From the NCBI GenBank assembly GCA_000004985.1, contig GG738891.1: DNA of 64,000 nt, one strand, 5' to 3'. The first letter of the stretch is position 1, and every line of letters begins with the position of its first letter. Both the position numbers and the translations under genes were made by a program. Origin of the DNA: Naegleria gruberi (lineage: Eukaryota). The notes under the pieces were generated by a model. It searched no databases, was not told the DNA's origin, and saw only the letters and a program-made list of their open reading frames with translations. Below, in pieces: positions 4,163 to 37,260 of the stretch.

Positions 4163-4210
4163 CTTTAGTTTACAATAATTATTAAATAATCATAACTAAA
4201 CAACACGTAC

Positions 4211-4671: not shown

Positions 4672-4690
4672 CCCGCTCATTTTTATTGAC
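4672..4690. repeat. Left terminal inverted repeat of the transposon.
   Basis: CCCGCTCATTTTTATTGAC matches the reverse complement of 7197-7215 with one indel. Confidence 0.6.
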
Positions 4691-6244: not shown

Positions 6245-6256
6245 CCAACCAATAAG

Positions 6257-7513: not shown

Positions 7514-7530
7514 AAAGAGCAGAAAAAAAT
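7514..7530. repeat. 17-bp direct repeat, copy 2. It ends in the ATG of the downstream peptidase gene.
   Basis: Identical 17-mer; the final AT plus the following G form the start codon at 7529-7531. Confidence 0.7.
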
Positions 7531-10271: not shown

Positions 10272-11870
10272 ATGTCAAAAGAATGTGCAGTGGCTGATCG
10301 CGAATATTATGAAGAATCTCAACCACCAACAGTGCTAAATAATCAAAATAATGCAAAGAAACTAGACGAAAGCTTTCCACCAGTTGAATATCACGAAAAT
10401 TCATTAAATTCTTTAACACCCGATTACATTTACCTTGACGAGAACAATATCGAAAAGGATTTAATCTGTTCTCTCTGCTACCATCCCTTCATTGATCCAA
10501 TTATGCACTCAACATGTGAAAATATGTTCTGCTCCTCTTGTGTTAAAAAAGTTATTGGAAACAAGTGTCCCCTATGTAAAGGAGAGAATTTCACATCAAA
10601 TTGCTCATCTGTTCCTCGATTCGTCACCAACAAGTTGCTACAATTGAAAGTGGAATGTTCCATGTGTAAGGGAGCAGTTGCAAGAGGTGATTTGAAAGAT
10701 CATCAGGAAAAATATTGTCCTCTTCATGATGCCTATCAACAGGTGACTAAATTGAAGGAGAAACTGGAAGAGGAATGCAAGGAGAAGAAGGATGAGTTGG
10801 GAAGAAAGTTGGAAGAATTATCTGAAAGTTTAAATCTCGAATGGAGTCAAAAGAAGGATGAGTTGACCAGAGAATTTGAATCGAAAGAGGAGGAACTGCA
10901 TGAACGAATTGAATTATTTGAGAATCAAATATTGGCAAGGGAAAAACTTGAGAATGTGAACAAACCTATTCATTTAAATGTTGGTGGGACTATTCTTACA
11001 GTTTCTTTGGGAACATTTATTCATAATGAAAGAGAATCAGATAATTTATTTAAAAAAATGTTCACAGGTGAATATCCATGCTATCAAACACCTTCAAAAC
11101 AGTTTGAAGAGCCTGTGTATTATGTTGATTGTGATCCAATGATTTTCAGATACATCTTAGGATGGTTACAATATGGAAAGAACTCAATTGGGCCAAGTTT
11201 GAGTTTATCTGACATTCTTCTAGCTTGTAAGAAGTTTAGTTTAGATAATCTAGCTGTTAAATTAACCAAATCTGAATACTTTTATGAGATTTCTCAACTA
11301 GAATTCTTCAAAATGAAGAATAGCTCTCCATCCATAATTTTAAACAAATTTGACATGACTAATTTAATGTTAAGAGGTATGGATCTACAAAAATCCTCAA
11401 TTTCACTTTCACTTTTCAGGGGAATGGATTTGAGTGGAGTGAATTTTTCCAATTCTAATTTGAATGGATGTAACTTTAGTGGTTGTATCTTGGATGGAAC
11501 TAATTTTTCAAAATCCAACTTGTCAAATGCAAACATTCAAATAAGTTCATCTTGTAATTTCACTAACTGTGATTTTTCTGGTTGCTTGATTGACAAGTCA
11601 AATTTGAACAATCTTTCATTTTCAGGATCCAGTTTTAAAGAAACCAAGTTTGTGGAATTGTGTAATTTGATTGAGAATGTGACACTGAGCAAGTGCACAA
11701 TTTACAAAGTTTACTTAAATGGAAAGACGTTTAATAGAGTTGACTTTAGTGAAACATCTTTTAAAGATTGCAAGTTTGCAGATTGTACCTTCAAGAACTG
11801 TAACTTTTCAGAGACTCAATGGAAGACAAGCAAAGTAGAGCGATGTAATTTTCTGGAATGCATTCAGTAA
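10272..11870 (+). CDS. RING/TRAF-type zinc finger, coiled coil, BTB/POZ (T1/KCTD-like) and pentapeptide-repeat protein, with KCTD9-like architecture.
   Basis: The start is set by the track ORF, which opens MSKECAV with ATG+TCA at 10272-10277; the written context is aaaaaaATGTCA. Motifs: C.LC....DP.....C...FC..C......KCPLC; a KLKEKLEEE coiled coil; IHLNVGGTILTVSLGTF...VYYVDCDPMIFRYILGWLQYG (BTB/T1); then pentapeptide-like repeats (NLSNANIQISSSCNFTNCDFSGCLIDKSNLNNLSFSGSSF...). Confidence 0.6.
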   Translation: MSKECAVADREYYEESQPPTVLNNQNNAKKLDESFPPVEYHENSLNSLTPDYIYLDENNIEKDLICSLCYHPFIDPIMHSTCENMFCSSCVKKVIGNKCPLCKGENFTSNCSSVPRFVTNKLLQLKVECSMCKGAVARGDLKDHQEKYCPLHDAYQQVTKLKEKLEEECKEKKDELGRKLEELSESLNLEWSQKKDELTREFESKEEELHERIELFENQILAREKLENVNKPIHLNVGGTILTVSLGTFIHNERESDNLFKKMFTGEYPCYQTPSKQFEEPVYYVDCDPMIFRYILGWLQYGKNSIGPSLSLSDILLACKKFSLDNLAVKLTKSEYFYEISQLEFFKMKNSSPSIILNKFDMTNLMLRGMDLQKSSISLSLFRGMDLSGVNFSNSNLNGCNFSGCILDGTNFSKSNLSNANIQISSSCNFTNCDFSGCLIDKSNLNNLSFSGSSFKETKFVELCNLIENVTLSKCTIYKVYLNGKTFNRVDFSETSFKDCKFADCTFKNCNFSETQWKTSKVERCNFLECIQ

Positions 11871-16300: not shown

Positions 16301-19300
16301 AGACAGATACTTGGAATTTATAGATCTGGTAACCAAATGTTTCTAAAGAGACGTAGAGGTCAGAGTATTTATCCATACTGTATCTGATTTTTGGTCCACT
16401 CAATTGAGTCCATTCAATGATTGAATTTTCTGATTTGCATGAAGATTCTGACACTATTTTCTTGATGGTAATAGGAAATTGAGTAGTTACTTTTTCAATA
16501 GTTGTTTGTGGAACATATAATGCTGGAAGAGGGCTTTCTGCTTTTGAAAATATGGAAGAATATACAGTTGAGCTATTTACAATATTTCCCACCACAAGAG
16601 AAACTAAATATTTTCCTTGTGGAAGGGTTGAATCTAGCTTAATTAATGGAGTATTGGGGAAATTGAATGGAATAATTTGGAACACATGGTCTGTCTCATT
16701 GAACAAGGTCCAGTAATAGTCAAGTGGTGTATTATTTGGAGATATACTGAGCGAGCCATCAATGATAATCTCATCACAGGAGCTATAGAATTCTGAGAGT
16801 AGATTTATGGATGCTGTTGGAGCGATAACTTTTTCATTTTCACACCAAATGCCATAATATCCATTCTCACATTGGCATTGATTGTAATCTATGCATACAC
16901 CTCTTCCAGAACAAACATTAGAATCATTCGAAAGTAGAGAATCACATCGTGTCAACTCACAATTCACACCAACATGATTACTGGTGCATGTACAATTATC
17001 AAAGCTTGAACAATTACCACGATTTGAACACACCAAAGGATTGGTATTATTCAGACCGAAACAAGAGTATTGTTCACAACTTTCACCGAAATAGCCGTCA
17101 GAGCATTGGCAAGTATCCAAATCAATGCAATTACCCTTTCCAGAGCAAACAGTTTCTTTTTCACTTGATGAAATGTTGAAACATGTGGTCAACTCACAAT
17201 TAGCTCCATGATACTTTTCTCCACATGTACAATTATTGTAGGATGAGCAAAATCCTCTACCAGAACAAACCTTTGAATCGGCATGCTCTGTTCCATTACA
17301 ATCAAAATAATTACATAGATCTCCATAAGTTCCTAATTGACAAGAGCACTTATTCACATCAATACATTGGCCATTTCCAGAACACACTGTCGAGTTGTCT
17401 TTTTCAATACCAAAGCATGAAAATTCTTTACATTCCACACCAGTATATCCTGAACGACATTTACAATCATCAAAATCAACACATTCACCTCTTCCTGAAC
17501 AAACATTTTGAGTTTCATTGCTCAAAACACCAAAACAACTTGTCACTGAACAATCTAATCCGAAATAATGTGATACACATTCGCACTCATCTGTTTCAGT
17601 ACAACTTCCGTGCCCAGAGCAAACTCTGGAATCAGTTCTATTCATTCCATAACAAGAATAATATTGGCAGTTGTCTCCGTAATATCCTTCAGAACAATTG
17701 CATTGATTGAATCGATAGCAATTTCCTTTTCCAGAGCAAACTTGAGGATTTGATGAAGATACATTGAAACACACATAAGATTCACATTCTTCTCCATGAT
17801 ATCCATGCTCACATGAGCAATTATTAGGAGAAACGCATTGACCATGACCTGAACAAGCCAATGGTTCTGAATGTTGCACATTAAAACATGAGAAATTGTC
17901 ACATTCCTTTCCATAGTAACCAGATACACATGTGCAATTATCAAAATCAACACATTCACCTCTTCCAGAACAAACACTTGAAGAATTGGAAAGTTTGGAG
18001 AAGCAAGTAGTGATGGAACAGTTCAAATCCATATAGTTCTCATCACATTGGCATTGATCCAAGCTGGAACAAGTTCCTCTTCCAGAACAAACATTGGAAT
18101 CTGAAGAATTGAATCCAAAACATGTGTAAAGTTCACAAAATTCACCAAAATATCCATATTCACATTGGCAATTATTAAATGTTTCACATGAACCATGCTT
18201 GGAACAAACTGAGCTATTGGAAGATGAAATTCCATCACAAGTAGTTTCTTGACAGAATGAACCAAAGTAATGTTCTACACATTCGCATGTGTCATGTTGC
18301 TTGCATTCACCACGTCCATTACAAACTCTTGAATCATTACTTAATAATCCCTCACAGGATGTCACTTGACATTTATCACCCCACCAATTGTTTGAGCAGT
18401 GACATGTATCGGGTCCAACACATATTCCATTTCCAGAACATGATATGTTTAAAGTTTTCGATTCATTAAAACATGAAAATTCGTCACAATTTGATCCAAA
18501 ATAATCAATTTCACATTGACATAAATTAAAATCAATGCATTGACCATGTGAGGAACAAACTAGATTGGTTTGATTCGATGGGATGGAAGCACAGGTGGTG
18601 AGTTGACATTCTTCTCCGAAATAGTTTGGTAGACAAAAGCATTCGTCAAGTTTCGAACAATTTCCTCTTCCAGAACAAACACTTTTGGTTTCAGTATGAT
18701 TAATTCCAAAGCAAGCATAATTTTCACAATCCATGCCTGAATAACCATTCTCACATTCGCAAATTTCAGATTTTAAGCATTTTCCGTGTTTGGAACAAAC
18801 TGAACTATTTAAATGCTCAATTCCATTACAATAAAATTCTTCACAATTTGATCCAAAATAACCAGTATTACAAGTGCAATTGTTAAAATCATTACAGTTA
18901 CCATTTTTGGTACAAACAGTCGAGTCATTTGACATTATTCCAAAACAAGAGGTTACGTCACATGCCAATCCAAAGTAATTTTCTTGACATTCACAATTTC
19001 CAAAATCTGAACAATTTCCTCTTCCTGAACAAACTAACACATCATTTTGAGTAATATTGTTACATGTGTAATATTGACATTCATCACCAAAATATCCAAA
19101 TTTACAAGAACAAGTATTGTAATCAATACATTTTCCTTTTCCAGAACAAGCTCGTGAACTGGAAGATATTTCAGCACCACAACTTGTCAATTGACAATAA
19201 TCTCCAAAATAGTGAGCTTGACATTTACAATTATTGTAAGAAGTACAATTTCCTTTTTGGGAACAAACAACAGAAGAATTGGTATTGTTAATGCCATTAC

Positions 19301-22300
19301 AAGTATAATATTGGCATTCTTCTCCGAAATATCCATCATTACAACGACATGAATTGTAATCAATACATTGGCCGTTAGAGGAACAAGCAGTTTCGTTTTG
19401 GTTGGAATATTCGAAACATTCGAATATCTCACAATTGAAGCCCCTGTAATTAAGCGAGCAGTTACATTGATTGTAATCAATGCAATTACCCTTTGATGAG
19501 CAGACTGTTGAATTTAGAGATGATACTGAGCTACATGTGGTCAACTCACAATTTTTTCCAAAATAATTTTCTTCACAAGTACAATTATCGAAACTTGAGC
19601 ATTTTCCTCGAGAAGAGCAAACTTTAAAATCGACATTTGATATTCCATGACATGAAAAATATTGACATTCGTCTCCAGAATATTCATCATTTTCACAAGC
19701 GCAATTATTAAAGGAAGTACATTTGCCGAAACCAGAACAAACTGAAGAGTTATAAGATTCAATTCCATTACAAGTGGTAATTTCACAACTCAATCCAAAA
19801 TAATTCATTTCACATTGACAGGTGTCAAAATCAACACAAGCTCCATAACCAGTACAAACCAAACTGTCATTACTCAATATTCCATTACAACTTGTCACTT
19901 GACACATTGATCCAAACATATTTTCCTTACATTCACAAGTATTTACATCAAGACATTTGCCACGACCAGAACATGACAAGTTGGAGAATTTGGAAATTTC
20001 AAAACAATTGAAATTTTCACATGAATCTCCATAATAATCAGCTGTGCAATTACAAGTATTGTAATCTATACATGTTCCCTTTGATGAGCAAACAGAACTT
20101 TCATTGGATTGAATATTATTACAAGTGGTCAATTCGCAATTATTTCCAAAATAGGAATCAATACAGGTGCAATTATCAAAACTCGAACATTTTCCTTTTG
20201 AAGAACAAACAGATTCCAAAGTATTGTTCACATTGAAACAAGTATAAAATTGACAATCATTTCCAAAGTATCCTTCGTCACATTCGCAATTCTCAAAACT
20301 TTTACAATGACCTCTTGATGAGCAAACTGAGGAATTGTAATGTTCAATGCCATTACAGTTAAATAATTCACAATTGGTTCCATAATATCCTTCATTGCAT
20401 TCGCAGAAATCAAAATCTGTGCAATTTCCTTTTCCAGAACAAACATTAGTTTCGTTTGAAAGTGTTGAATTACAACTGGTCAATTGACATTCATCTCCTA
20501 AATAATTAAGGAAACATGAACAATTATTTGTTGAATAGCATTCTCCACGTGAATGACAAACAGATGAGTTGATATTCAAAATGTCAAAACATTTGAATTC
20601 AGAACAATCAGAACCAAATGAATTTTCAAAACATTGACAGGTGTCAAATTGTGAACAAACTCCATTTCCAGAACATGTCAAATCTGTTACATTGGATGGA
20701 ACTCCAAAACATACAGTAACTTGGCAGAATTGACCAAAATAATTTTCAGTGCAATTACAACTATCTGTTTCAATACAATTACCACGTCCTGAACAAACAA
20801 TTGATTCATTACTCAATGTTCCATTACATTTGTATAATGAACAGTCAGCTCCGTAAGCATCTGGTTGACATTGACAGGAATTCACATCAGAACATTTGCC
20901 TCTGCCAGAACAAACTAATTGTGATTGATTTGAAGGAATGGAAAAACAATCAGTCACTTGACAATAATCTCCATAATATCCATCTCTGCATGAACATTGA
21001 TTTGGTGATAGACATTCTCCTCTTCCAGAACAAGTAATTGTTTCATTACTAAAAATGGAATTACATATTGTAACTGAACAATTCAGTCCAAAGTAATTAA
21101 AATCACATTCACACAAATCTGTTTCTGAACAAATACCATGTCCAGAACAAACCAAAGATTCACTATTATTCAAACCAAAGCAAGTGTGGAATTGACAATT
21201 CTCTCCATAATATCCCTCAGAACAATTACAATGATTGTAAGAAGAACAATCACCTTTTCCAGAACAAACACTGTTATTGGTCATATCAAGTCCAAAACAA
21301 GATGTTCTCTCACAAAATTCACCATAGTATCCATCCGTACAATTACAAATATCTTTTGCAACACAATTTCCATTGGAATTACAAACACTTGTCAAATTAC
21401 CAAAAGTTCCATTACATTTGGATATGGAACAATCCTCACCAAATGCATCTGGAAGACAAATACATGAATCTATATCTGAACAATTGCCTCTTCCTGAACA
21501 AACTGTAGAGTCCAAGTTGAGTGTGCCAAGACATGAGAATTGAGAACAAGTTATTCCTGAATAACCTGGTTTACAAGTACAATTATTGAAAGAAGAACAT
21601 AAACCGTGAGAGGAGCATACTTGAGTGAAATTGGAAACAATATTTTCACAAGTCGTGAGCTGGCAGAATGGACCAAAATAATTTGCCGTGCAATTACAGA
21701 TATCTGGATTAATACACGAGCCACTTCCGCTACAAACAAGGGAATCATTACTTGGAATACCATTGCACAATGTAAATTCACAATTTGTTCCATAAATTTG
21801 AGAATTATTGCAATGACAATTGTTAACATCTGAACAAACGCCCCTTGAGGAACAAACTGATGAGGAATTTCTGTTAAATCCAAAGCAATCATATTCTTGA
21901 CAGTCAGATCCATAGTATCCTTCCTCACATTCACAATTATTGTATTGAGTACAATTACCGCGACCTGAACAAACAATTGTGGAATTTGAAACGATATTTG
22001 AACACGTTGTGAACTGACACCATTCACCAAAGTAATGTTTGGAACAGTTGCAAACTTTGAAATCGGTACAAATACCATTCTTTGAACAGACTAATGAATC
22101 ATTTGCAGTAATATTGTTACAATATGGAATTTCACAATTCAATCCAGTATAACCATATTTGGAATCACAATTACAATTATTATATGAATCACAACTTCCA
22201 TGTCTACTACAAACACGTTGATCATTAGATCCAAAACCATAACATGTTGTAAAATCACAAAAAGTTCCAGCATAATTCAAGTCACATTCACAAACGTCCA

Positions 22301-25300
22301 TGTCAACACATTTTCCAAAATTATTACAAACAAGAGATGAGTTTGAAGAGATCGAATCACAAGTAGTAAATTCACAATTCGATCCAAAATATCCTTCTCT
22401 ACATTCACATCTATTGTACTCTGAACAGATTCCTCGGCCACTACATACAGACCTATTATTCGAATCCACTCGGTCACAAGTTGTAAGTTCACACCAATCA
22501 CCGAAATAATTCTGAGAGCAGTTACAATAATTTGGACCATAGCAAGTACCCCTGGAATTACAAACTCTTGAATCATTGCTCATCGTTCCATTACAATATG
22601 TCAATTCGCATTCTAATCCAAAACTAAACTCATTACACTCACACTTATTGTAATCAACACATTTGCCATTTTTTGAACAAGTTTCATTGGAATTAAAAAC
22701 TCCAAAACATGAAAATTCGCTGCAATTAAACCCAAAGTATCCATAACTGCATTCACAGGTATCGTATGCAGTACATTTACCCTTTCCATTACAAACTTGA
22801 GAATGTTGTGAATCAACTCCATAACAACTGGTCAACTCACAAAAGGAGCCCCAATAGTACGGTTCTATACAAGAGCACACATCAGGATTAGAACAGTTGC
22901 CTCTACCAACATCAGTACACTTTCCAATTAGTCCATTACATATTGGAATATCACAATCTGAGCCACCATAACCTAAAGTCTCATTACATGTGCAATTATT
23001 GAAATTTTCACACAATCCTCTCAAATTACAAACCAATGGTGAAGTGTTTTCAATGAGATTACATGTTGTAAATTGACACCACTCTCCATAATGACCCTCT
23101 TCACATGAACAAACATCGGTTTTTGTGCATTTTCCATGACCATTACAAACAAGAGTTTCATTTCCCAAAGTGCCATTACAATACAATACTGAACAATCAA
23201 CTCCAAAAGTGTCTGGTCTACAAGAGCAGGTATTGAAATCTGTACAATTTCCATTTCCAGAACAAACAGTTGGAGAGTTTGGAAGCAAATCAAAACATGT
23301 GAATAAATTGCAGTCCTCTCTGACATATGGTTGTAAAGGGTCAAAGGTTGATGGTTGACTGAATTTTGCTTGTTTCAAAATTAAATAACCACCTTCTGTA
23401 CAGGTTGACCAAATAGCTCCTTGAATATTATCTGAAACTATGAAATCGTGTCCATATCTTGCAATTACAGTTCCATGAACATTTCCAGAAAAGGTATTTC
23501 CATGAATTGCTGGATTGTAAACCCAATTTGCATTTCCAGAGCTGAAATAATAAGTCAACCAAAAAACATTTCTATAGGTAGCACATTTCAGATAGGTAAA
23601 ATCGGCGCCAAAATAGTGTACGAAAGGAAGCTTAAAGACCACTGGTTCAATTCCTACAATTGTAAACTTTTGGCCATTGATTGTCCATCCATTTTCCATG
23701 CAATAGACACCTCCTCTGTTGATGATAATGTTTCTACCCATGTCAGTGTCTGGATTTTTTATCATGTAATCACAAGGAAGGGCCAGAAGCTCCTGCATCT
23801 TATTAGAAACTTGTTGAACTAATTCTAAACCGTAATTTTCTGAACTGTTTGTAACTATAGCACTTCCATTGGCAACATAGGGATAAACTGGATCTGGATA
23901 AACATAATTTGGAGGATTAATGACGAATGAAGGTATTGCAATACTAGCAGAAAGTGGCGCGTTATCCAAACTATTCTTAACTAAAACTATTGGAATGTTG
24001 GAGATTAATTTATAACCAGCAAATATATCATTTTCGCACAAGGTTCCAGAAAAGCCAGCACTACAAGTACATTGATCAAATGCATAGCAACGTCCTCTTC
24101 CAGAACAAACTGAACTATTCGTATTTTCAATGCCGAAACATGAAGTAAATTGGCAGAAAGTTCCATAATAATTTTGAGAACAGGAGCAATTATTTGGAGC
24201 AAAACAAGCACCTCTTCCAGGTGCAGTACAAATTCCTACCAAATTATTACAAATAGGAATATCACAATTAGGTCCGCCAAATCCCATTTCTGTCCTACAT
24301 GTACAATTATCGAAATAGTCACAAATTCCACTACTGTTACAAACAAGAGGTGAATATTTGGAAACTCCTGCACATGTTGTAAACTCACAAAAAGTTCCAT
24401 TGTGTCCAAAGTCACATTGACATGTATCCTTGGCCACACATCGTCCGTGTCCACTACAAACATTTGAAACATTACTAAGAATTCCATTACAAAAGGAAAG
24501 TGAGCATTGAGGACCATAACTATCTGAATTACATATACAGGTGTCAAAATCTACACATTTACCCCTTCCAGAACATGTCATATTTGAAGTTGACACAATG
24601 CCATAACAATTCACACGAGAACAGAAAGTTCCATCATAATACGAATCTTGTGGATTAAATGTTATAGGTGCTGACAGTTTTACATCTTTAAAATTGAGAT
24701 TTCCTTTAGAATTTGGTGAATGAATCATCAAAGATCCTTGTATGTCACCTGTAACTGTCAAATCAGCATTGCTATTTGCGATCATTGTTCCTTGAACAGT
24801 TCCAGAAATAGTTAAATTAGAGTTTGCATCAGTGGATAGGAAGAGTAAATTTCTATAAGTTGCGCACTCAAGATATGAAACCTTGGATCCAATATAATTA
24901 AAATACGGAGCTTTAAAGACAACTTGTTCAGTACCTATTATGGTTAAAGACATTTTGTTAATTGTCCATCCTTGCTTCAAGCAATAAACCATTCCACCTC
25001 TAATAGTGATGCTAGTAGTCAATTCCAAGTCTGGATTAGTAACATTAACTGTACATGGTAATGCTATTAATTCAGTTACTTTTTTTGTTAATTCTTGAGA
25101 AAGAATTTGTCCGCTAGATGTTGTAGTATTCTTAATGACTGCATCTCCATTCGAAACATATTGGAATTGATACTTTTCTGTAACCATTAGTGGAATTGCA
25201 ATACTGGCCAATAGATATGAATTGGATCTTGAGTTTTTTACCAAATTTAGTTTCTTATTGGTGATGAGTTTGTATCCAGCAAAAAGATCATTTTGACAGT

Positions 25301-28300
25301 TAGTGCCAGAGAAACCTGCTCTACAAGAGCATGTATTGTAATCTGTACAATAACCATGTCCACTACAAACCATCGAATCATTGGAAATAAGCCCAAAACA
25401 AGTAGTCAACTCACAATTCACACCCAAATATCGTGAAGATGAGCATGTACAAGTATTAGCATTCGAACAAGTTCCTCTTCTCGAACAAACATTAGGATTT
25501 GAAGCATTCAAACCGAAACACATGGAAACATTGCACCAAGTTCCAGTAAATTTCGAATAATCAGCGCAAGTGCAATTATTGAAAGGCCAACAAGTTCCAT
25601 GCCCACCACAAACTAATGAAGAATTTGAAGATGAAATGGAAGCACAAGTTGTTTGATTGCAATTTGGTCCAAAATAATTGGATTTACAGGAACAAGTGTC
25701 AGTTGCCAAACAACTTCCCAATCCATTGCAAGTTTGTGTGGAATTACTCCAAATGCCAAAGCATTTCTGAATGGAACAATTCGTTCCATAATATCCATCG
25801 TAACATTTACATGTGTCAATAGCAGAACAAACACCTTTTCCACTACAAACATTTGTTGAATTTTTGAGAATTCCAAAACATTTGTAAATTTCACAATTAC
25901 TTCCAGAATATCCTGTCTTACAAGTACAATTGTTGTAATCAATGCATTTACCAAATCCTGAACAAGTTAGTGAATTATTTGATTCAATTCCACCACAAGT
26001 TGTCAAATCACAGAATTGACCATGATAACGTTGTGAACAGTTACAAACATCTGGATAGATACATGAACCATGAGTATTACAAACTGATGAAAGAGAAGCC
26101 TTTGTTCTATTGCAAATAGGAATTTCACAATCTAATCCAGTATAACCAAACTCTGAACTGCAATTACAATTATTGTAAACTTGACAAGAACCTCTTTCTC
26201 TACAAGCCAAGGAAGAATTTGATGAAACACCATTACATGTGGTTAGCTCACAGAATTTTCCGTAATAATGAGCATTACACTCACAAATGTCTTTGGCAGA
26301 ACAAATTCCTCTACCAGAACAAACAGTTGATATGTTACTGAAAATTCCATCACATTTAGATATGGAACAATCACTTCCATAGGCATCCTCTGAGCATACA
26401 CAAGTGTTATAATCTATGCATTGTCCTCTTCCATGACATGTACTATTTAAATTTGAAGAAACATTATAGCAAGAAGTGTAATTACAAAAATCTCCGATAT
26501 ACTTTTCATGAGTATCAAAAGTTAATGGTACAGCAAGAGAAACTTCATGTAAAATTGAGGTAGAGCTTCCTGTTACCCATAATTGACCATCAAACGGTCC
26601 TATTACCGTCATTGATCCAGAATAATTGGGAATGTACGTTCCAAGAATTGGTGGTAAATAATTTGTCAACTTGTTTCCTCCTTCAATCACAGTGGAACCA
26701 CCAATTATCCAGAAAAAGTTTCTATGGGATGCACATTCCAGTAGCAATATGTTTGCATTAGTAATTGTAAGAGACTGAACTTTGAAAATCACTAGTTCAG
26801 TACCAATAATTACAATTCTTTGGGACGAGTTGATTGTCCAAGTGAAATCAAAACAAAATACCCCAGATTTTCTAACAACAAGTTCTTTAGGTATTTGTGA
26901 TGAGCTGGTAAATCGTTGAGTGCAGGCCATTGCTATCAAGCTAGTTCTTTTTCTCTTCATTTTTTGAATAATCACATTTGACAGCGAGATAGAACTTTTA
27001 GTCATGGTTGCCTTTCCCTTGGATTTTAAAGTAATTCCGGTACTACTCATAGAACCATAAATAATACTTGATCCAAAGTACCTAGTTAAGCTGTTTACAA
27101 CTGGCTGATAATAGTTGTTCGAATATTCAATTTCGAATACACCTGGAGTATCAGAAATGAGACCATACCCAGCAAACATATCATACATGAATCTTTCACA
27201 ATAGATTCCATCATATTCGTCCTGACAAGAGCATGTTTCGTACAAATTACAAGCTCCATGTCCATTACAAACAAACGAATCATTCGAAGCAGTTTGGTTA
27301 CAAGTTGTCAGTTGACACCAATCACCATAATAATGATCATTACATAAACAGCTATTAGGGGATGTACACTTTCCGTGTGAGCTACAAACATTCGAATTAT
27401 CGCTATAAGTTCCATTACAAATTGTAATCTGACAATTCAATCCAAAATAATTTGGAATACAGGAACAAGTATTTGGGGCCATGCATGAACCTTTAGAAGA
27501 ACAAGTTGAATTCAACAAGCTAGATACTCCATTGCAATCATACTTATTACAAATTGTATCGTAATAACCTGATTTACATGTACAAGTTTCGAATGCAGTA
27601 CAAGTACCATGTGAGGAACAAACGGCCGTGTTATTCGATTCAGTTCCATTACAAGTAGTTACCTCACAATTAACACCATAGTAATGTTCTTTGCAGTGAC
27701 ATGTATTTGGTTCTGTGCAGTTACCTCTACCTGAGCAGACTTTCGAATCAGTGGCAGGTTTAGAATAACAAACAGGGATTTGACATTCAGATCCAGTATA
27801 TCCCTTTAGAGGATTACAAACACAAGTATTATAAGGCCAACAAGTACCCCTTTCATTACAAACGGTGGTGTTTGTGGAATTAATTCCAAAACATGTTGTA
27901 AATTGACATTTGAAGCTTTCGTAATTTGGTTTACAGACACAGGTGTCAGTATCTACACATGTGCCTTCTCCGCTACAAACATGTGATACATCATTACTTA
28001 AATACCCATAACACTTGGAAATTGAGCAATCATTTCCATAATATCCATCTCTACATTTACAATTATTGTAATCTAAACATTCACCTCTTCCAGAGCAAGT
28101 TGTGTTTGAATTTCTATTGATTCCATAACAATTAAATTCTTGACAATTATTTCCGTAATAGTTCGTCTTACAATCGCACTTTTCAAAGGCAGAACAAGAA
28201 CCATGAGATGAACAAACAGTTGAATTTGTTGAATTAATTTCTGAACATGTTGTCACTTGACATAGATCACCAAAGTAATGATCTGAACAATTACATACAG

Positions 28301-31300
28301 AAGGAGAGATGCAAGAACCATGTGCACTGCATACTGCACTACCAGTTGCCAAAATTCCTTTACAAATAGGAACTTGGCAATAGCTTCCTCCATATCCATA
28401 ATTGGAATTACAAGAACAGTTTTCATATTTGATGCATTGTCCTCTTCCACTGCAAACATCTGAAGAATTGCTGGAAATACCTCCACAAGTAGTCAATTCA
28501 CAGAAAGTTCCATAATAATTAGCATTACAAGAACAAGTATCTGGTCCTACACATTTTCCTCGAGTGGAGCAAACTGAAGATGTATTGCTATATGTGGAGT
28601 TACATAAGAACAAGGAGCAATCTAATCCAAAAGCACCTTCTAGACACTTGCATGTATCAATATCGACACAAACACCCTTTCCTGAACAAGTTGTATTTGA
28701 GTTGGATTTTTCATTGTAACATGTTGTAAAGTTACAAAAATCTCCAACTATTTGATCATAAGGATCAAATGTTATAGGAGCTGTAAACTTCACATTACTT
28801 AATTCTATCATCCCTAAATTCCAAATCTGACCTTCAACAAGACCACTAATTGGCAAATAGTCAACCGATGAAACAAGAGTTCCATACAGAGGACCCACAA
28901 CACGTGAAGTGAAATTCACAGACTTTCCTATGAACCAATAAACATTTCTAAATGACGAACATTCTAAATGAATCATTGAAACATTCTTATAATCAATACT
29001 TGGTGCTTTGAATACAATTGTCTCTGTACCAATTATTGTAATCTTTGTAGAAGAAACTGTTAAAGTTGAATTAAAGCAATAGACTCCTCCCTTTCTAATT
29101 ACCATAGAATTTGCAAAGAATGATAGAGAATTTGATATGTAATAGTTGCATCTCAATAGATTTAACTCTTGAACTTTTTCTTTCATTTGTCGAAGCAATT
29201 CTATACCAATTGGTTGACTTGTATTTGTAATGATAGCATTTCCATTAGAAATGTATTCGTATTGACCTTGAGAAACATTCATTGATGGTATAGCTATACT
29301 TGCCATCAAAGGGGAATTAGTTTGCAAGTTGATTTTTACATTGATTTTCGACTCACTGATTAATTTGTATCCAGCAAAGTAATCATGAATGAAAAGTTCA
29401 CAATTTGAACCATTATAACGAGTTACACATTCACAGATATCATAATCTAGACATTTTCCGTTTCCAGAACAAGCTAATGAAGAATTAGAAACCTCGCCAA
29501 AACATGTTGTCATTTCACACAAACTTCCCAAATAATTGCTATCACATGAACAGAGATCTGTAGAAGTACATGATCCGTGAGAGCTACATACAGAAGAAAC
29601 GTTGCTAAATACCCCGTTACATGTAGTTACTTCACAAGTATTTCCATAGAAATTTGTATTGCATTCACAAGTGTCTATATCAATACAATTTCCATTTTTG
29701 GAGCAAGATAAACCAGAGGCCATTCCTATTCCAAAGCAATCATATTCCTGACAAATCTTACCATAATAACCTTCCATGCATGAACAATTGTTAAAATCTG
29801 TGCATTCACCATGTCCAGAGCAAACCAAAGAATCATTTGAACTGATTCCATCGCATGTGGTCAACTCACATAAATTTCCAAAGTATGTGTCACTGCAATT
29901 ACAATAATCCAGCAATACACAATTTCCTCTATGGTTACACACCGTTTCATTGGTAGATATTATACCTTTGCAATATGTAAGTTCACATGAAAATCCCTCA
30001 AACCCTTCAAAACAAGTACAATTCTCAGCCATCGCACAAATTCCATTTCCATTACAAACAGTTGTGTCATTTGACAATACTCCACCACACAAGGTTTCAG
30101 AGCATGTCTCACCAAAATAGTTCAATTCGCAAAGGCAACTGTTTGTACTATGGCAAGAACCTCTTCCAGAGCAAACAGAACTGTCATTACTCGAAATACC
30201 ATTACAATAGGAAATTTCACACATCGCTCCCTCATATCCTTCTTCACATTGACAAGAATCAATATCTAAGCATTGACCCCTTCCAGAACAAACTTTACTA
30301 TTGTTCAAAGATAAACCGAAACAATTAAAAATTTCACATTCTTGTCCATAGTATCCTTGGGCACATTCACAATAATTGAAAGAAGAACAACTTCCTCTCA
30401 TGGAACAAACTGATGTAGAGTTGGATTCTAATCCAAAACACGTGGTTGATTGACAGAATTCTCCATAATAATTATCTGTACAATTGCAAATATTAACATC
30501 AATACATTGACCTCTTTCTGGTTGAGTGCAATAACCAACCAATCCATTGCACGTTGGAATATCACAATTGGATCCTCCATAAAGAAATGATGCATCACAA
30601 GAGCAATTATTAAATTTCTCACATGAACCTCTTTGATTACAGGCATTTGGTGATAAATTTGAAATACCATCACAAGTTCTGAATTGACACCAAGTACCAT
30701 TATTTCCATATTCACAAAGACAAGTATCTGTAGAGATACATTGACCATTTCCACTGCATGCATTCGATTCATTTCCAAGTACTCCATTACATTTGGAAAT
30801 AGAACAATCGTGTCCATAACTTTCTGAAGGACACAAGCATGCGTCCAAGCCAACACATAATCCCCTTCCTCCACAAACGCTCGCCTCACTCGATAACACT
30901 CCAAAACAATAGGTACTTAAGCATTGTGCAGTAATATAGGTATCATATGGATTGAAAGTTATTGGCGGACTAAACACGAGATCAAAAACAATCAATTGAG
31001 TTCCTCCGACATACCAGATTGCTCCTTGGACATTGTGGTAAACCTCCAAGCTGTAATAAGGAGAGGCTCCTATCACTGTACCATGAATTGTTCCTGTGAA
31101 AAAGTTGCCATTCAATCCTCTATCAAATGTCAACCAGAAAAAGTTTCTGTAAGAGGCACATTCCAAGTAATAGAAAGTGGCTCCATAGTAGTAGACAAAA
31201 GGAGTTTTGATTACAACAGGTTCTGTACCAATCACTACAAAAGTATAAGATGAATCTATGGCCAATCCATTTGGAAAACAATACACTCCTCCATGTTTGA

Positions 31301-32750
31301 AAATTGCACTCTTATTAGATCCAAAAAATGGTTCCTGATTGGAAAAGGTAAAATCACATGGTTTCTCAATAATTTCTTGAGCTCTTTTTTCCATGGCTTG
31401 AACAATTTGATCACCTAAAGGGTTTGTATCGTGTGTGTAAGAAATTGATGCGTAAACTTCGTCATCTGCCAAAACAAATGGTTCTGGAGGTGTTGATACA
31501 TAGGCTGTCGATAAAATCATTGATGGAAGAGCAATACTTGCAGAAAGAATGTTATTTGGAGCAGAGTTTCTTCCAATTACAACAGGTCTTGTACTAATGA
31601 GCTTGTAACCTGCTAAAATATCAACTTCACACAAATTCCCTTCAAATCCAGAAGGACATTCACATGTTTGATAGTCTGAGCATTTACCAACTCCTGAACA
31701 AGTAAACCTTGAATTGGATACAACCCCTCCACAAGATGTTAATTCACACAATTCACCAAAATAATTATTAGAGATGCACGAGCATTGATTAGGGCCAATG
31801 CACGAACCTCTCGAATTACAAGCAGTACTATTGGTATTCTCTACCTCTCCACATTTGAAAAGCTCACATTCTTCTCCATAAGCACCAGTGGAGCAGAGAC
31901 AAGTATCTAACTGTGTGCAATTTCCTCTTGAAGAACAAACATTGCTCATATTGGAGAGTTTATCAAAACAGGTGCTAATTTCACATTCCATACCAGAATA
32001 GCCATCAGAGCATGAGCATGTATTGTTGTCGGTGCAGTTTCCTCGTGAGTTGCAAACATTGAAATGGTCTTGTTGGATGCCAAAACATGAAATGGAAATA
32101 GATTCAGATGAGGAATTGTTGGAAAGAGTGGTTTCATTATTAGATATTTGGGTGTTGTTGTTTTCAATAGACTCACAATTCAAACCTGAGTAACCTATTG
32201 AACAATTGCAAAAATCAAATTCAATACATGTACCAGAGCCAGAACATACTTCGCTCTCATTACTAAGTAATCCAAAACAAGATGTTATGGAACAATTTTC
32301 TCCAATGTAATTAATATCGCATTTACATGTATCTGGTCCAATACATTGACCGTGTTGGGAACAAGTCGTATTGAAATCATCAGGGTCCAGTCCATAACAT
32401 TGATAGTTTTCACAGTCGGCACCAAAATATCCACTCTCACATATACACTCTGTTCCATTACTCTCCGAAGAACAATTGCCTCTACCAGAACAAACTTCAG
32501 TGATTGAAGAATTGTAAAAAGATGTTGTATCATTAGAACATGATATAGCAGAGACATTCCAATAATGATGAAGGTGTCTATCACTCAACATGAAGAAAAG
32601 AAGTTGTATCAATAGAAGAAGTGAAATGAGTCTATGTATCATTAGAGTAGACCTCCTCTCTGTGTATGAACATTGAGCAGTAGATGCCTGCATCTTCAGT
32701 GTAGTTCCGTATCCTTCAGTAGTATGAAGCATATTAAAAGAGAGGAACAA
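13326..32750 (-). CDS. Giant (up to 6474 aa) single-exon type I membrane protein. It has a signal peptide, over 100 tenascin-type EGF-like repeats interrupted by five repeated roughly 230-aa modules, a roughly 1170-aa non-EGF juxtamembrane region, one TM helix and a cytoplasmic tail.
   Basis: Uninterrupted 19.4-kb ORF. Six-Cys periodicity CFG(L/I)xSNxSxVCSGRGxCx5CxCx3YxGxxCE repeats every about 31-33 aa. The N-terminal hydrophobic segment MIHRLISLLLLIQLLFFMLS gives a likely ATG at 32642. The C-terminal TM MLIGIIIAVVVGAMVL lies at about 14040-14090. The track start at 32750 is a TTG. Confidence 0.8.
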   Translation of the reverse strand: MFLSFNMLHTTEGYGTTLKMQASTAQCSYTERRSTLMIHRLISLLLLIQLLFFMLSDRHLHHYWNVSAISCSNDTTSFYNSSITEVCSGRGNCSSESNGTECICESGYFGADCENYQCYGLDPDDFNTTCSQHGQCIGPDTCKCDINYIGENCSITSCFGLLSNESEVCSGSGTCIEFDFCNCSIGYSGLNCESIENNNTQISNNETTLSNNSSSESISISCFGIQQDHFNVCNSRGNCTDNNTCSCSDGYSGMECEISTCFDKLSNMSNVCSSRGNCTQLDTCLCSTGAYGEECELFKCGEVENTNSTACNSRGSCIGPNQCSCISNNYFGELCELTSCGGVVSNSRFTCSGVGKCSDYQTCECPSGFEGNLCEVDILAGYKLISTRPVVIGRNSAPNNILSASIALPSMILSTAYVSTPPEPFVLADDEVYASISYTHDTNPLGDQIVQAMEKRAQEIIEKPCDFTFSNQEPFFGSNKSAIFKHGGVYCFPNGLAIDSSYTFVVIGTEPVVIKTPFVYYYGATFYYLECASYRNFFWLTFDRGLNGNFFTGTIHGTVIGASPYYSLEVYHNVQGAIWYVGGTQLIVFDLVFSPPITFNPYDTYITAQCLSTYCFGVLSSEASVCGGRGLCVGLDACLCPSESYGHDCSISKCNGVLGNESNACSGNGQCISTDTCLCEYGNNGTWCQFRTCDGISNLSPNACNQRGSCEKFNNCSCDASFLYGGSNCDIPTCNGLVGYCTQPERGQCIDVNICNCTDNYYGEFCQSTTCFGLESNSTSVCSMRGSCSSFNYCECAQGYYGQECEIFNCFGLSLNNSKVCSGRGQCLDIDSCQCEEGYEGAMCEISYCNGISSNDSSVCSGRGSCHSTNSCLCELNYFGETCSETLCGGVLSNDTTVCNGNGICAMAENCTCFEGFEGFSCELTYCKGIISTNETVCNHRGNCVLLDYCNCSDTYFGNLCELTTCDGISSNDSLVCSGHGECTDFNNCSCMEGYYGKICQEYDCFGIGMASGLSCSKNGNCIDIDTCECNTNFYGNTCEVTTCNGVFSNVSSVCSSHGSCTSTDLCSCDSNYLGSLCEMTTCFGEVSNSSLACSGNGKCLDYDICECVTRYNGSNCELFIHDYFAGYKLISESKINVKINLQTNSPLMASIAIPSMNVSQGQYEYISNGNAIITNTSQPIGIELLRQMKEKVQELNLLRCNYYISNSLSFFANSMVIRKGGVYCFNSTLTVSSTKITIIGTETIVFKAPSIDYKNVSMIHLECSSFRNVYWFIGKSVNFTSRVVGPLYGTLVSSVDYLPISGLVEGQIWNLGMIELSNVKFTAPITFDPYDQIVGDFCNFTTCYNEKSNSNTTCSGKGVCVDIDTCKCLEGAFGLDCSLFLCNSTYSNTSSVCSTRGKCVGPDTCSCNANYYGTFCELTTCGGISSNSSDVCSGRGQCIKYENCSCNSNYGYGGSYCQVPICKGILATGSAVCSAHGSCISPSVCNCSDHYFGDLCQVTTCSEINSTNSTVCSSHGSCSAFEKCDCKTNYYGNNCQEFNCYGINRNSNTTCSGRGECLDYNNCKCRDGYYGNDCSISKCYGYLSNDVSHVCSGEGTCVDTDTCVCKPNYESFKCQFTTCFGINSTNTTVCNERGTCWPYNTCVCNPLKGYTGSECQIPVCYSKPATDSKVCSGRGNCTEPNTCHCKEHYYGVNCEVTTCNGTESNNTAVCSSHGTCTAFETCTCKSGYYDTICNKYDCNGVSSLLNSTCSSKGSCMAPNTCSCIPNYFGLNCQITICNGTYSDNSNVCSSHGKCTSPNSCLCNDHYYGDWCQLTTCNQTASNDSFVCNGHGACNLYETCSCQDEYDGIYCERFMYDMFAGYGLISDTPGVFEIEYSNNYYQPVVNSLTRYFGSSIIYGSMSSTGITLKSKGKATMTKSSISLSNVIIQKMKRKRTSLIAMACTQRFTSSSQIPKELVVRKSGVFCFDFTWTINSSQRIVIIGTELVIFKVQSLTITNANILLLECASHRNFFWIIGGSTVIEGGNKLTNYLPPILGTYIPNYSGSMTVIGPFDGQLWVTGSSTSILHEVSLAVPLTFDTHEKYIGDFCNYTSCYNVSSNLNSTCHGRGQCIDYNTCVCSEDAYGSDCSISKCDGIFSNISTVCSGRGICSAKDICECNAHYYGKFCELTTCNGVSSNSSLACRERGSCQVYNNCNCSSEFGYTGLDCEIPICNRTKASLSSVCNTHGSCIYPDVCNCSQRYHGQFCDLTTCGGIESNNSLTCSGFGKCIDYNNCTCKTGYSGSNCEIYKCFGILKNSTNVCSGKGVCSAIDTCKCYDGYYGTNCSIQKCFGIWSNSTQTCNGLGSCLATDTCSCKSNYFGPNCNQTTCASISSSNSSLVCGGHGTCWPFNNCTCADYSKFTGTWCNVSMCFGLNASNPNVCSRRGTCSNANTCTCSSSRYLGVNCELTTCFGLISNDSMVCSGHGYCTDYNTCSCRAGFSGTNCQNDLFAGYKLITNKKLNLVKNSRSNSYLLASIAIPLMVTEKYQFQYVSNGDAVIKNTTTSSGQILSQELTKKVTELIALPCTVNVTNPDLELTTSITIRGGMVYCLKQGWTINKMSLTIIGTEQVVFKAPYFNYIGSKVSYLECATYRNLLFLSTDANSNLTISGTVQGTMIANSNADLTVTGDIQGSLMIHSPNSKGNLNFKDVKLSAPITFNPQDSYYDGTFCSRVNCYGIVSTSNMTCSGRGKCVDFDTCICNSDSYGPQCSLSFCNGILSNVSNVCSGHGRCVAKDTCQCDFGHNGTFCEFTTCAGVSKYSPLVCNSSGICDYFDNCTCRTEMGFGGPNCDIPICNNLVGICTAPGRGACFAPNNCSCSQNYYGTFCQFTSCFGIENTNSSVCSGRGRCYAFDQCTCSAGFSGTLCENDIFAGYKLISNIPIVLVKNSLDNAPLSASIAIPSFVINPPNYVYPDPVYPYVANGSAIVTNSSENYGLELVQQVSNKMQELLALPCDYMIKNPDTDMGRNIIINRGGVYCMENGWTINGQKFTIVGIEPVVFKLPFVHYFGADFTYLKCATYRNVFWLTYYFSSGNANWVYNPAIHGNTFSGNVHGTVIARYGHDFIVSDNIQGAIWSTCTEGGYLILKQAKFSQPSTFDPLQPYVREDCNLFTCFDLLPNSPTVCSGNGNCTDFNTCSCRPDTFGVDCSVLYCNGTLGNETLVCNGHGKCTKTDVCSCEEGHYGEWCQFTTCNLIENTSPLVCNLRGLCENFNNCTCNETLGYGGSDCDIPICNGLIGKCTDVGRGNCSNPDVCSCIEPYYWGSFCELTSCYGVDSQHSQVCNGKGKCTAYDTCECSYGYFGFNCSEFSCFGVFNSNETCSKNGKCVDYNKCECNEFSFGLECELTYCNGTMSNDSRVCNSRGTCYGPNYCNCSQNYFGDWCELTTCDRVDSNNRSVCSGRGICSEYNRCECREGYFGSNCEFTTCDSISSNSSLVCNNFGKCVDMDVCECDLNYAGTFCDFTTCYGFGSNDQRVCSRHGSCDSYNNCNCDSKYGYTGLNCEIPYCNNITANDSLVCSKNGICTDFKVCNCSKHYFGEWCQFTTCSNIVSNSTIVCSGRGNCTQYNNCECEEGYYGSDCQEYDCFGFNRNSSSVCSSRGVCSDVNNCHCNNSQIYGTNCEFTLCNGIPSNDSLVCSGSGSCINPDICNCTANYFGPFCQLTTCENIVSNFTQVCSSHGLCSSFNNCTCKPGYSGITCSQFSCLGTLNLDSTVCSGRGNCSDIDSCICLPDAFGEDCSISKCNGTFGNLTSVCNSNGNCVAKDICNCTDGYYGEFCERTSCFGLDMTNNSVCSGKGDCSSYNHCNCSEGYYGENCQFHTCFGLNNSESLVCSGHGICSETDLCECDFNYFGLNCSVTICNSIFSNETITCSGRGECLSPNQCSCRDGYYGDYCQVTDCFSIPSNQSQLVCSGRGKCSDVNSCQCQPDAYGADCSLYKCNGTLSNESIVCSGRGNCIETDSCNCTENYFGQFCQVTVCFGVPSNVTDLTCSGNGVCSQFDTCQCFENSFGSDCSEFKCFDILNINSSVCHSRGECYSTNNCSCFLNYLGDECQLTSCNSTLSNETNVCSGKGNCTDFDFCECNEGYYGTNCELFNCNGIEHYNSSVCSSRGHCKSFENCECDEGYFGNDCQFYTCFNVNNTLESVCSSKGKCSSFDNCTCIDSYFGNNCELTTCNNIQSNESSVCSSKGTCIDYNTCNCTADYYGDSCENFNCFEISKFSNLSCSGRGKCLDVNTCECKENMFGSMCQVTSCNGILSNDSLVCTGYGACVDFDTCQCEMNYFGLSCEITTCNGIESYNSSVCSGFGKCTSFNNCACENDEYSGDECQYFSCHGISNVDFKVCSSRGKCSSFDNCTCEENYFGKNCELTTCSSVSSLNSTVCSSKGNCIDYNQCNCSLNYRGFNCEIFECFEYSNQNETACSSNGQCIDYNSCRCNDGYFGEECQYYTCNGINNTNSSVVCSQKGNCTSYNNCKCQAHYFGDYCQLTSCGAEISSSSRACSGKGKCIDYNTCSCKFGYFGDECQYYTCNNITQNDVLVCSGRGNCSDFGNCECQENYFGLACDVTSCFGIMSNDSTVCTKNGNCNDFNNCTCNTGYFGSNCEEFYCNGIEHLNSSVCSKHGKCLKSEICECENGYSGMDCENYACFGINHTETKSVCSGRGNCSKLDECFCLPNYFGEECQLTTCASIPSNQTNLVCSSHGQCIDFNLCQCEIDYFGSNCDEFSCFNESKTLNISCSGNGICVGPDTCHCSNNWWGDKCQVTSCEGLLSNDSRVCNGRGECKQHDTCECVEHYFGSFCQETTCDGISSSNSSVCSKHGSCETFNNCQCEYGYFGEFCELYTCFGFNSSDSNVCSGRGTCSSLDQCQCDENYMDLNCSITTCFSKLSNSSSVCSGRGECVDFDNCTCVSGYYGKECDNFSCFNVQHSEPLACSGHGQCVSPNNCSCEHGYHGEECESYVCFNVSSSNPQVCSGKGNCYRFNQCNCSEGYYGDNCQYYSCYGMNRTDSRVCSGHGSCTETDECECVSHYFGLDCSVTSCFGVLSNETQNVCSGRGECVDFDDCKCRSGYTGVECKEFSCFGIEKDNSTVCSGNGQCIDVNKCSCQLGTYGDLCNYFDCNGTEHADSKVCSGRGFCSSYNNCTCGEKYHGANCELTTCFNISSSEKETVCSGKGNCIDLDTCQCSDGYFGESCEQYSCFGLNNTNPLVCSNRGNCSSFDNCTCTSNHVGVNCELTRCDSLLSNDSNVCSGRGVCIDYNQCQCENGYYGIWCENEKVIAPTASINLLSEFYSSCDEIIIDGSLSISPNNTPLDYYWTLFNETDHVFQIIPFNFPNTPLIKLDSTLPQGKYLVSLVVGNIVNSSTVYSSIFSKAESPLPALYVPQTTIEKVTTQFPITIKKIVSESSCKSENSIIEWTQLSGPKIRYSMDKYSDLYVSLETFGYQIYKFQVSVYYPSNPNIKDVSVVTLITKPPDLYLNLITFDAQPNYTIINVDYTDPEMVYNAYSTEVWEWTCLDNNVNELLLEFLSVLSSEKSTNFKIDAALFPVPPLSLELDLKVTKSDGRSIHKSTTIHFTYIPPIINIINVYPKKEYFLVSDTLTLQTSLIPGTSLITNYTVIVNNVIVGSTSSDYINIDPSLLNAGSNNIITLSAYDPNANVASLIQYSFSVASPPPMCYCTITPLNGFAVETEFEFICMNCKSEEDHLDYRYGFIDDRSGVKIYMHNIDVGYSKQLPTAFIGETVTCFFEVINTATQASTIESMNVSIQTRSYSTFSQVQVLAQQWIKQAKEESLLGSLYQSAAISRTSTALLNRAITKIEPISIYENTRSLTRSLTCKNGGILKKDTCMCREGFVGVACENTIKDFAEYQNKNLQLLRMLANGTEIMMDNQLISIAAFTVDSILYNFKHLDTNTVSEALSQLVKYLVKVIADESLKLPVGVDFCLDSVIDSAFQFILEKRFFTKQASNAQQLFTTLKFTSHLEARSQPKTRTKVFKKAAFYRRVMELVWLYDYSNHQLLIEPSTLTSVKVQLNNTIKATHSSKPFLQAFLVVDDIFSIGDYLASKVETLSEKVRRKSSLQSKIIAFGFGDLDVALLKSSSIIDLEFHIPLLENTTTTQDDSNLGQLFFKEVNTSYSCASISISTLSIEDNPNCIVTIINSTMATCKCSVTFNMTNLVSSTLNLFIVQKKIYIDDQSMLIGIIIAVVVGAMVLCCSVTIGCYAYYCFYGELCCLAIPCLQFCCCCWWCCYCCGKSSILRHHRNRRRRALSMTTAIDVDVESDNGDDEKPHLHIEPFNPHPHPVVPIINLNNTINNTSTTTIIYNEDHPIVEGETIYLPPTPRETPSTRGEEDTHSNHSNNITISHDNDDGDDHNSEGAVTVVRGGKGVGRGGGDDDDGNSTTNSRHSFISVLSNFSSESVRKLFRKKKKEEEIPSAVQIDLRLVFE

Positions 32751-35222: not shown

Positions 35223-35295
35223 GTACCCTTGGCTCAATTGGAAGAGCATCGGCCTACGGAGCCGGGGGTTGTGGGTTCGAGTCCCACAGGGTATA
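35223..35295 (+). tRNA. tRNA-Arg (anticodon ACG), 73 nt, no intron.
   Basis: Cloverleaf by hand. Acceptor GTACCCT/AGGGTAT (G-U at 1:72). D-arm GCTC-AATTGGAA-GAGC. Anticodon arm TCGGC-CTACGGA-GCCGG, the same loop as known eukaryotic Arg-ACG. T-arm GTGGG-TTCGAGT-CCCAC. Discriminator A. Confidence 0.85.
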
Positions 35296-37179: not shown

Positions 37180-37260
37180 GCAGGGGTTCCCGAGTGGTCA
37201 AAGGGGGTAGACTCAAGTTCTACTGCGCAAGCTTCGTGGGTTCAAATCCCACCTTCTGCA
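37180..37260 (+). tRNA. tRNA-Leu (anticodon CAA), 81 nt, long variable arm, no intron.
   Basis: Acceptor GCAGGGG/CTTCTGC (two G-U pairs). D-arm CCC-GAGTGGTCAAA-GGG. Anticodon arm GTAGA-CTCAAGT-TCTAC. 12-nt variable arm. T-arm GTGGG-TTCAAAT-CCCAC. Discriminator A. Confidence 0.85.

Follow-up and report, generated by a model that had tools for sequence, protein, structure and literature searches.

Five highly diverged DUF3494-like modules are interspersed in the EGF arrays of a giant membrane protein encoded by Naegleria gruberi

The DUF3494 domain (Pfam PF11999) is the most widespread ice-binding fold of microorganisms, and to our knowledge most of its members are from habitats without ice and lack an assigned function. 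All characterised DUF3494 domains that we know of dock onto an extended, ordered surface through one flat face of the solenoid. The canonical structure is a right-handed, triangular beta-solenoid; its first coil is followed by a long alpha-helix packed along the solenoid and then by the other coils (PMC11645318). Proteins of this family are common in ice-free habitats and may bind other substrates there (PMC7783341, PMC11645318), and all eukaryotes reported to carry the domain up to 2024 came from icy habitats (PMC11645318). The present analysis concerns a stretch of 64,000 nucleotides of contig GG738891.1 of Naegleria gruberi (assembly GCA_000004985.1), referred to here as the window. A single, uninterrupted open reading frame (ORF) on its minus strand, the giant ORF, encodes five copies of a module of about 220-238 amino acids (aa) that are embedded in arrays of EGF repeats. 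These modules, numbered M1 to M5 from the N-terminus, are highly diverged DUF3494/PF11999 ice-binding-like beta-solenoids and form a subfamily beyond the reach of the Pfam model.

All five modules carry the start motif AGY[KG]LI[ST] (at aa 380, 1126, 1860, 2491 and 2911) and the end motif P[ILS]TF[DN] (at aa 596, 1325, 2075, 2695 and 3133), and a six-frame hidden Markov model (HMM) scan of the window found exactly five copies. They could be aligned end to end with 29-45% identity and 25 invariant columns, and in BLASTP comparisons each of the ten module pairs was matched with an E value between 2.5e-17 and 9.5e-56 (nominal database size 1e8). The modules contain 3-4 Cys each, compared with about 15-16 Cys per 100 aa in the flanking EGF regions. 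A further conserved Cys follows TF[DN]P at a distance of 6-9 residues and just precedes the first Cys of the adjoining EGF repeat in all 11 modules of the giant type, and this trailing Cys suggests a module boundary slightly past the one given in an earlier note on this DNA. The note had described five homologous, Cys-poor modules within EGF arrays and had proposed that the segments be aligned; the alignment, the BLASTP comparisons, the Cys counts and the six-frame scan confirm this description, with homology over the whole length of the segments, and its coordinates agree with the HMM-defined boundaries (Table 1) to about 10-35 nucleotides. The conserved blocks that it had listed are present with small variations (GGVYCF, IIGTExVVFKxP and LECASYRNxFW). 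Its start motif was found as D-x-[FL]-AGY[KG]LI[ST], with D in every copy at the first position, for which D or N had been given. Its end sequence TF[DN]P is present as well, but the functional unit is probably 6-9 residues longer and extends to the conserved fourth Cys.

Comparison of profiles by hhalign matched the 11 giant-type modules to seven canonical PF11999 domains with a probability of 98.1% (E 6.9e-14, 146 columns), and reversed and column-shuffled control targets gave P 0.07-0.81. Among PDB sequences, a profile of 13 Naegleria sequences matched 12 at E <= 1, all 12 of which are DUF3494 ice-binding proteins (best E 7e-4), and the profile of the five window modules matched only the ice-binding protein 7bwx/7bwy, with an E value of 0.1. 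When this five-module profile was searched with hmmsearch against 1.84 billion representative proteins, 14 matches were obtained at E <= 0.001. Five of them (P0001-P0004 and P0010) are EGF proteins of Naegleria or of a Naegleria-like kind, and in the remaining nine PF11999 passes its gathering score, with E values of 8e-13 to 8e-69 and, for P0006, of 2.4e-11. The PF11999 proteins had E values of 1e-6 to 4e-4 in the five-module search, which matched no other family. In a joint alignment of 19 sequences, comprising modules and canonical domains, all sequences share C88, C112, G128 and G206, at least 90% of them have G109, V110 and G188, and the core motifs PC, GVYC, VFK/IFK, NVFW, GTI[IL]A and G[RK] are common to modules and canonical DUF3494. 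The modules are 9-17% identical to the solved DUF3494 structures.

An AlphaFold model of M1, for which the alignment contained the five window modules only, reached a predicted local distance difference test score (pLDDT) of 73 and a predicted template modelling score (pTM) of 0.76. All of the top 30 Foldseek matches of this model in the PDB were DUF3494 ice-binding proteins with a probability of 1.0, and the E value leaps from 3e-3 to 0.2 after the DUF3494 matches. Three significant matches were found in a viral structure library, all of them Hyperionvirus DUF3494 proteins. A second model, of M5, was based on the 19-sequence alignment and reached pLDDT 89.6 and pTM 0.86. The predicted order of elements, with strands at residues 8-39, an 18-residue helix at 67-84 and strands at 102-225, matches the canonical DUF3494 topology as far as the models indicate. 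A left-handed hexapeptide-repeat fold was rejected (Foldseek E >= 0.2, template modelling score about 0.1). The Foldseek search with an AlphaFold model, which had been suggested in the earlier note as a check, thus returned DUF3494 ice-binding proteins, and together with hhalign and the PDB profile search it assigns the modules to a known domain, which, as far as computation goes, refutes the new domain family proposed there. The guess of a beta-helix was correct, since the predicted models match DUF3494 beta-solenoids, while nothing was found in support of a lectin-like module. The amoebozoan source that had been assumed was wrong and was rejected on the taxonomy of N. gruberi, which belongs to Discoba/Heterolobosea.

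In every EGF array that follows a module, the long one behind M5 included, the number of Cys exceeds a multiple of six by one. Module 1 of P0003 has the third ('LEC'-like) and fourth Cys (C3 and C4) and lacks C1 and C2; P0010 has C1 and C2 and lacks C3 and C4. This covariation among paralogs suggests pairing of C1 with C2 and of C3 with C4. Judged from the sequences, each module probably forms two disulfides, C1-C2 ('PC'...'GVYC') and C3-C4 ('LEC'...trailing Cys), of which C1-C2 would be common to canonical DUF3494 and C3-C4 would be lineage-specific.

The giant ORF encodes a type I membrane protein with a probable signal peptide, EGF arrays interspersed with the five DUF3494 modules, an REJ domain, one transmembrane helix and a Cys-rich tail (Table 1). 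Its product of about 6400 aa contains 201 N-glycosylation sequons, and the signal-like segment and the transmembrane helix were the sole hydrophobic segments in a hydropathy scan. About 104 EGF repeats of the six-Cys type were counted in total from their Cys; they are of teneurin/tenascin type according to Pfam (EGF_2, E 1.8e-140; EGF_TEN, E 1.3e-124; EGF_Teneurin also matched). With the Pfam threshold relaxed to E <= 5, the 381 juxtamembrane aa and the tail still gave no match to GPS, GAIN, PLAT or PKD_channel, and a GPS-like motif before the transmembrane helix (ATCKCSVTFNM) was rejected for want of Pfam support. The Cys-rich juxtamembrane stretch and the cytoplasmic tail matched no Pfam family, and the region from REJ to the transmembrane helix had no sequence relative among PDB sequences. 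The juxtamembrane stretch LCCSVTIGCYAYYCFYGELCCLAIPCLQFCCCCWWCCYCC is possibly a palmitoylation cluster.

Table 1. Features of the giant gene and of its surroundings in the window (positions are those of the window; aa positions are those of the giant ORF).
Feature	Position	Strand	Basis or remark
Giant ORF	13326-32750	minus	6474 codons, single uninterrupted frame; stop codon 13326-13328
Probable start of coding sequence	ATG at 32642	minus	Met37 of giant ORF, followed by hydrophobic signal-like stretch
Probable signal peptide (MIHRLISLLLLIQLLFFMLS...)	32577-32642	minus	inferred from hydropathy scan
N-terminal EGF array, ~7 repeats	31629-32573	minus	Pfam EGF_2, EGF_TEN, EGF_Teneurin; Cys count
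Module M1 (DUF3494-like beta-solenoid, divergent)	30921-31628	minus	aa 375-610 including trailing conserved Cys; HMM-defined 30942-31628
EGF array M1-M2, ~13 repeats	29391-30935	minus	Pfam; Cys count
Module M2 (DUF3494-like)	28734-29390	minus	aa 1121-1339; HMM-defined 28755-29387
EGF array M2-M3, ~13 repeats	27189-28745	minus	Pfam; Cys count
Module M3 (DUF3494-like)	26484-27188	minus	aa 1855-2089; alone in window with direct, sub-threshold PF11999 match; HMM-defined 26505-27185
EGF array M3-M4, ~10 repeats	25296-26495	minus	Pfam; Cys count
Module M4 (DUF3494-like)	24621-25295	minus	aa 2486-2710; HMM-defined 24645-25292
EGF array M4-M5, ~5 repeats	24036-24635	minus	Pfam; Cys count
Inter-module EGF region	24036-30935	minus	four arrays, M2-M4 inside span
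Module M5 (DUF3494-like)	23310-24035	minus	HMM-defined 23334-24035
Extra (fourth) Cys codons of M1 to M5	30921-30923, 28734-28736, 26484-26486, 24621-24623, 23310-23312	minus	
Membrane-proximal long EGF array, ~55 repeats	16842-23321	minus	Cys count
REJ domain	15342-16367	minus	PF02010, E 1.4e-16, 60.6 bits (cutoff 25)
Single predicted transmembrane helix (MLIGIIIAVVVGAMVLCCSVTIGCY)	14001-14075	minus	hydropathy scan
Cys-rich juxtamembrane stretch (CCCCWWCCYCC) and low-complexity cytoplasmic tail	13329-14000	minus	translation, hydropathy scan
RING + BTB + pentapeptide-repeat gene	10272-11870	plus	product 100% identical to N. gruberi predicted protein
Peptidase_C39-like protein gene	7529-8851	plus	
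VWA-domain protein gene	3065-4156	minus	
72-bp tandem repeat, 1.9 copies	2102-2235		inside ORF 1686-2249
tRNA-Arg(ACG)	35223-35295	plus	just upstream of giant gene 5' end
tRNA-Leu(CAA)	37180-37260	plus	just upstream of giant gene 5' end

The closest relative of the giant ORF is the N. gruberi 'predicted protein' XP_002674088.1/D2VPE3 (P0001, NAEGRDRAFT_51207) of 4968 aa, which is colinear with the giant protein, shares 46% identity with it over 3676 aa and also contains five modules. D2VPE3 is a paralog at a separate locus and not the same gene. It is not annotated with the module domain, and Pfam detects EGF alone. Three smaller N. gruberi paralogs (D2W408, D2W3J2 and D2UZF2) combine EGF with one to three module-like domains and are unnamed and without domain annotation; REJ was detected in D2W408 and D2UZF2. 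Outside N. gruberi, the giant-type module was found among the searched proteins only in P0002, encoded on one ENA metagenome contig, and a scan of JGI metagenome contigs and viral contigs with a tighter alignment gave no module relatives. In another N. gruberi protein, D2VJ80 (P0016, 685 aa), a PhoPQ_related domain (PF10142, E 4e-94) is followed by a C-terminal PF11999 domain above the Pfam threshold. The DUF3494 family is therefore already represented in the N. gruberi genome, and D2VJ80 is a second, different deployment of the fold in it.

As the joint best explanation, it appears on balance probable that the diverged DUF3494 modules bind a non-ice substrate as parts of a receptor for adhesion or recognition. 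The EGF arrays would act as stiff stalks, in the way of the Ig-like extenders that carry DUF3494 in bacterial surface proteins, and the five beta-solenoids would be rigid, flat-faced modules for binding to an extracellular substrate of extended or repetitive structure. The substratum or a mineral, a polysaccharide, and a prey or cell surface would be candidate substrates, and the giant protein would serve in adhesion or recognition as a multivalent receptor and would not be an antifreeze protein. That the Naegleria modules are multivalent binding units is probable because of the analogy with the characterised DUF3494 domains and with the bacterial extender proteins (6bg8, P0008/P0012).

The nature of the substrate was approached through the bulk Thr/Ala/Gly composition, on which the comparison of ice-binding faces rests: the modules contain 5-11% Thr, 3-7% Ala and 6-8% Gly, compared with 13-19%, 9-14% and 10-15%, respectively, in six of the seven canonical DUF3494 domains compared. 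P0013, the remaining canonical domain, has a composition like that of the modules. N. gruberi, sequenced as strain NEG-M, is a mesophile of temperate soil and freshwater, and does not share the icy habitat of the reported eukaryotic DUF3494 carriers. A non-ice substrate is favoured because Thr, Ala and Gly have been lost, the host is temperate and DUF3494 is abundant in ice-free habitats. More tentatively, and with some doubt, the modules may be the first DUF3494 units in a eukaryote of a non-icy habitat that bind a non-ice ligand or surface, five of them in each EGF-stalked REJ receptor.

Several points weigh against this assignment and this function. The Pfam model PF11999 matched M3 with an E value of 1.7e-4 and 21.7 bits, under the gathering score of 28.7 bits, which is an operational threshold and not a biological feature, and it gave no match for M1, M2, M4 and M5. 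Only two of the 13 Naegleria modules were matched by it at E <= 0.01 and none at the gathering score. The alignment used for the M5 model included canonical DUF3494 sequences and possibly biased it to that fold; the M1 model was free of them. The low Thr/Ala/Gly content may be due in part to the AT-rich genome, frost can reach soil amoebae, and we know of no ligand for any non-ice DUF3494 domain. PF11999 was the sole Pfam family matched by the 13 Naegleria modules, and the weak match of M3 was retained, unlike other sub-threshold matches, because other evidence confirmed PF11999. Sub-threshold or spurious Pfam/NCBIfam matches of single modules to Microvir_J, AroM, LD_SV2, Bactofilin and SV2 were treated as noise. 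The modules look unassigned in routine annotation because the PF11999 model scores them below threshold.

The spacing of the modules is kept in the two paralogs (746/734/631/420 aa in the giant protein and 746/753/643/423 aa in D2VPE3), which would suit modules that are purely structural, namely rigid beta-solenoids without a ligand that interrupt the EGF rods as spacers or hinges. The fast divergence of M2-M4, which are 25-38% identical between the paralogs, is likewise what would be expected if their surface residues were weakly constrained. However, M1 and M5 are 54% and 57% identical, above the 46% of the whole proteins, and the constraint on the modules is therefore unequal. Since there are also five copies in a receptor-like protein, and the known relatives all bind surfaces via the flat face, a mere spacer role seems rather unlikely. 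By analogy with SfIBP_1, functional ice-binding modules might attach the amoeba or its cyst to ice, or keep ice recrystallisation at the cell surface under control. This is improbable for modules that are no longer rich in Thr, Ala and Gly as typical ice binders are, that show such low identity to the characterised ones and that belong to a temperate mesophile and to a family common in ice-free habitats. It draws some support from the matching solved structures, all of which are ice-binding proteins, from the habitats of the eukaryotic carriers reported previously, and from the multidomain, surface-tethered DUF3494 proteins that are known (6bg8; PMC11645318).

A new extracellular family, unrelated to known domains or merely convergently beta-helical or lectin-like, is very improbable given the hhalign, profile and Foldseek results. 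It would agree with the routine Pfam and NCBIfam scans, in which no match was above threshold, and with the word-indexed homology searches, in which the five-module alignment and M5 alone returned nothing. The word-indexed search, however, also missed P0001, which is 57% identical to M5 and belongs to the same collection (E 7e-257 in the exhaustive HMM search), so that its negatives are weak. Hardly any weight can be given to a non-functional giant ORF, whether a repeat array in decay or an artefact of the assembly, with modules of no function: its full-length product had no exact record in a collection of 15 billion proteins (four candidate starts looked up) and no near-identical representative among the 1.84 billion proteins searched exhaustively with the profile, but at a GC content of about 34% an open frame of 19.4 kb is not attainable by chance, the full architecture from signal to transmembrane helix is present, and D2VPE3, which is colinear and 46% identical, retains all parts. 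The RING-BTB-pentapeptide neighbour, in contrast to the giant ORF, is represented at 100% identity, and it is possible that the giant gene is unannotated, or modelled differently in the reference annotation, and absent from the protein sets searched. Exact look-ups of two neighbouring ORFs and of P0018 gave no record.

The DUF3494 domain family is already known, and the paralog D2VPE3 is public though unnamed. Within the literature library searched, no paper was found that ties Naegleria to DUF3494, ice binding or REJ, or DUF3494 to EGF. New are the subfamily itself, which is too diverged for PF11999, the interspersion of five DUF3494 modules in a giant eukaryotic EGF-REJ-transmembrane receptor, and the occurrence of a DUF3494 subfamily in a eukaryote of a non-icy habitat, which contradicts the statement on eukaryotic carriers in PMC11645318. 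In practical terms, an entire DUF3494 subfamily slips past PF11999. If the modules do bind a non-ice substrate, they would offer a route into the non-ice function of the family and define a new architecture of adhesion receptors in Heterolobosea. N. gruberi would then be a tractable model for the ligands of 'ice-binding-like' domains from ice-free environments, and the acquisition of DUF3494 by eukaryotes would not be bound to cold adaptation.

Elsewhere in the window, the product of the RING-BTB-pentapeptide gene is a member of an N. gruberi paralog family, in which some members carry TLDc. The region 4001-6000 has a GC content of 0.20, compared with about 0.33 elsewhere, and contains the long overlapping ORFs 5224-6276 (minus) and 5283-6401 (plus), which are probably low-complexity sequence rather than genes. 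The remaining neighbours are listed in Table 1.

With polycystin-1, PKDREJ and the sea-urchin REJ receptors the giant protein has in common a large modular ectodomain and a membrane-proximal REJ domain. Polycystin-1 and the REJ receptors, however, have 11 transmembrane helices and PLAT, whereas the giant protein has one transmembrane helix, and GPS/GAIN had no Pfam match in it. The modules share the element order, the motifs, the Cys pair and the extracellular location with canonical DUF3494 domains (TisAFP, LeIBP, FfIBP, ColAFP, AnpIBP, IBPv and EfcIBP). They differ from these in scoring below the gathering score, in being low in Thr/Ala/Gly and rich in aromatic residues, in their two extra lineage-specific Cys, in termini of their own (D-x-F-AGYKLIS and PITF[DN]P) and in occurring in five copies in the EGF arrays of a eukaryotic membrane protein. 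Their host is a mesophilic amoeba, unlike the carriers of canonical ice-binding DUF3494, and ice binding by the modules appears unlikely.

The alternation seen in the giant protein recurs in P0005 and P0007, two eukaryote- or giant-virus-like metagenomic proteins with three PF11999 domains and EGF_CA or ephrin-receptor-like repeats. Both carry canonical DUF3494 domains (Pfam E 1e-49 to 1e-54) and EGF repeats of the calcium-binding type, with no REJ or transmembrane helix seen. The gene of P0005 (1322-5155 of contig L001, Logan SRR22387849) lies on a compact, intron-free contig and adjoins FtsJ methyltransferase and PCNA genes; this contig looks like that of a giant virus. In bacteria, SfIBP_1 of Shewanella frigidimarina (6bg8), the two-domain IBPv (5uyt) and P0008/P0012 (Big_3/Big_7) likewise present DUF3494, sometimes in multiple copies, on small beta-rich extenders at the cell surface. 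The bacterial multidomain proteins use Ig-like extenders and other anchoring and reach at most about 1600 aa, whereas the N. gruberi protein combines its five modules with EGF repeats, REJ and a transmembrane helix in about 6400 aa.

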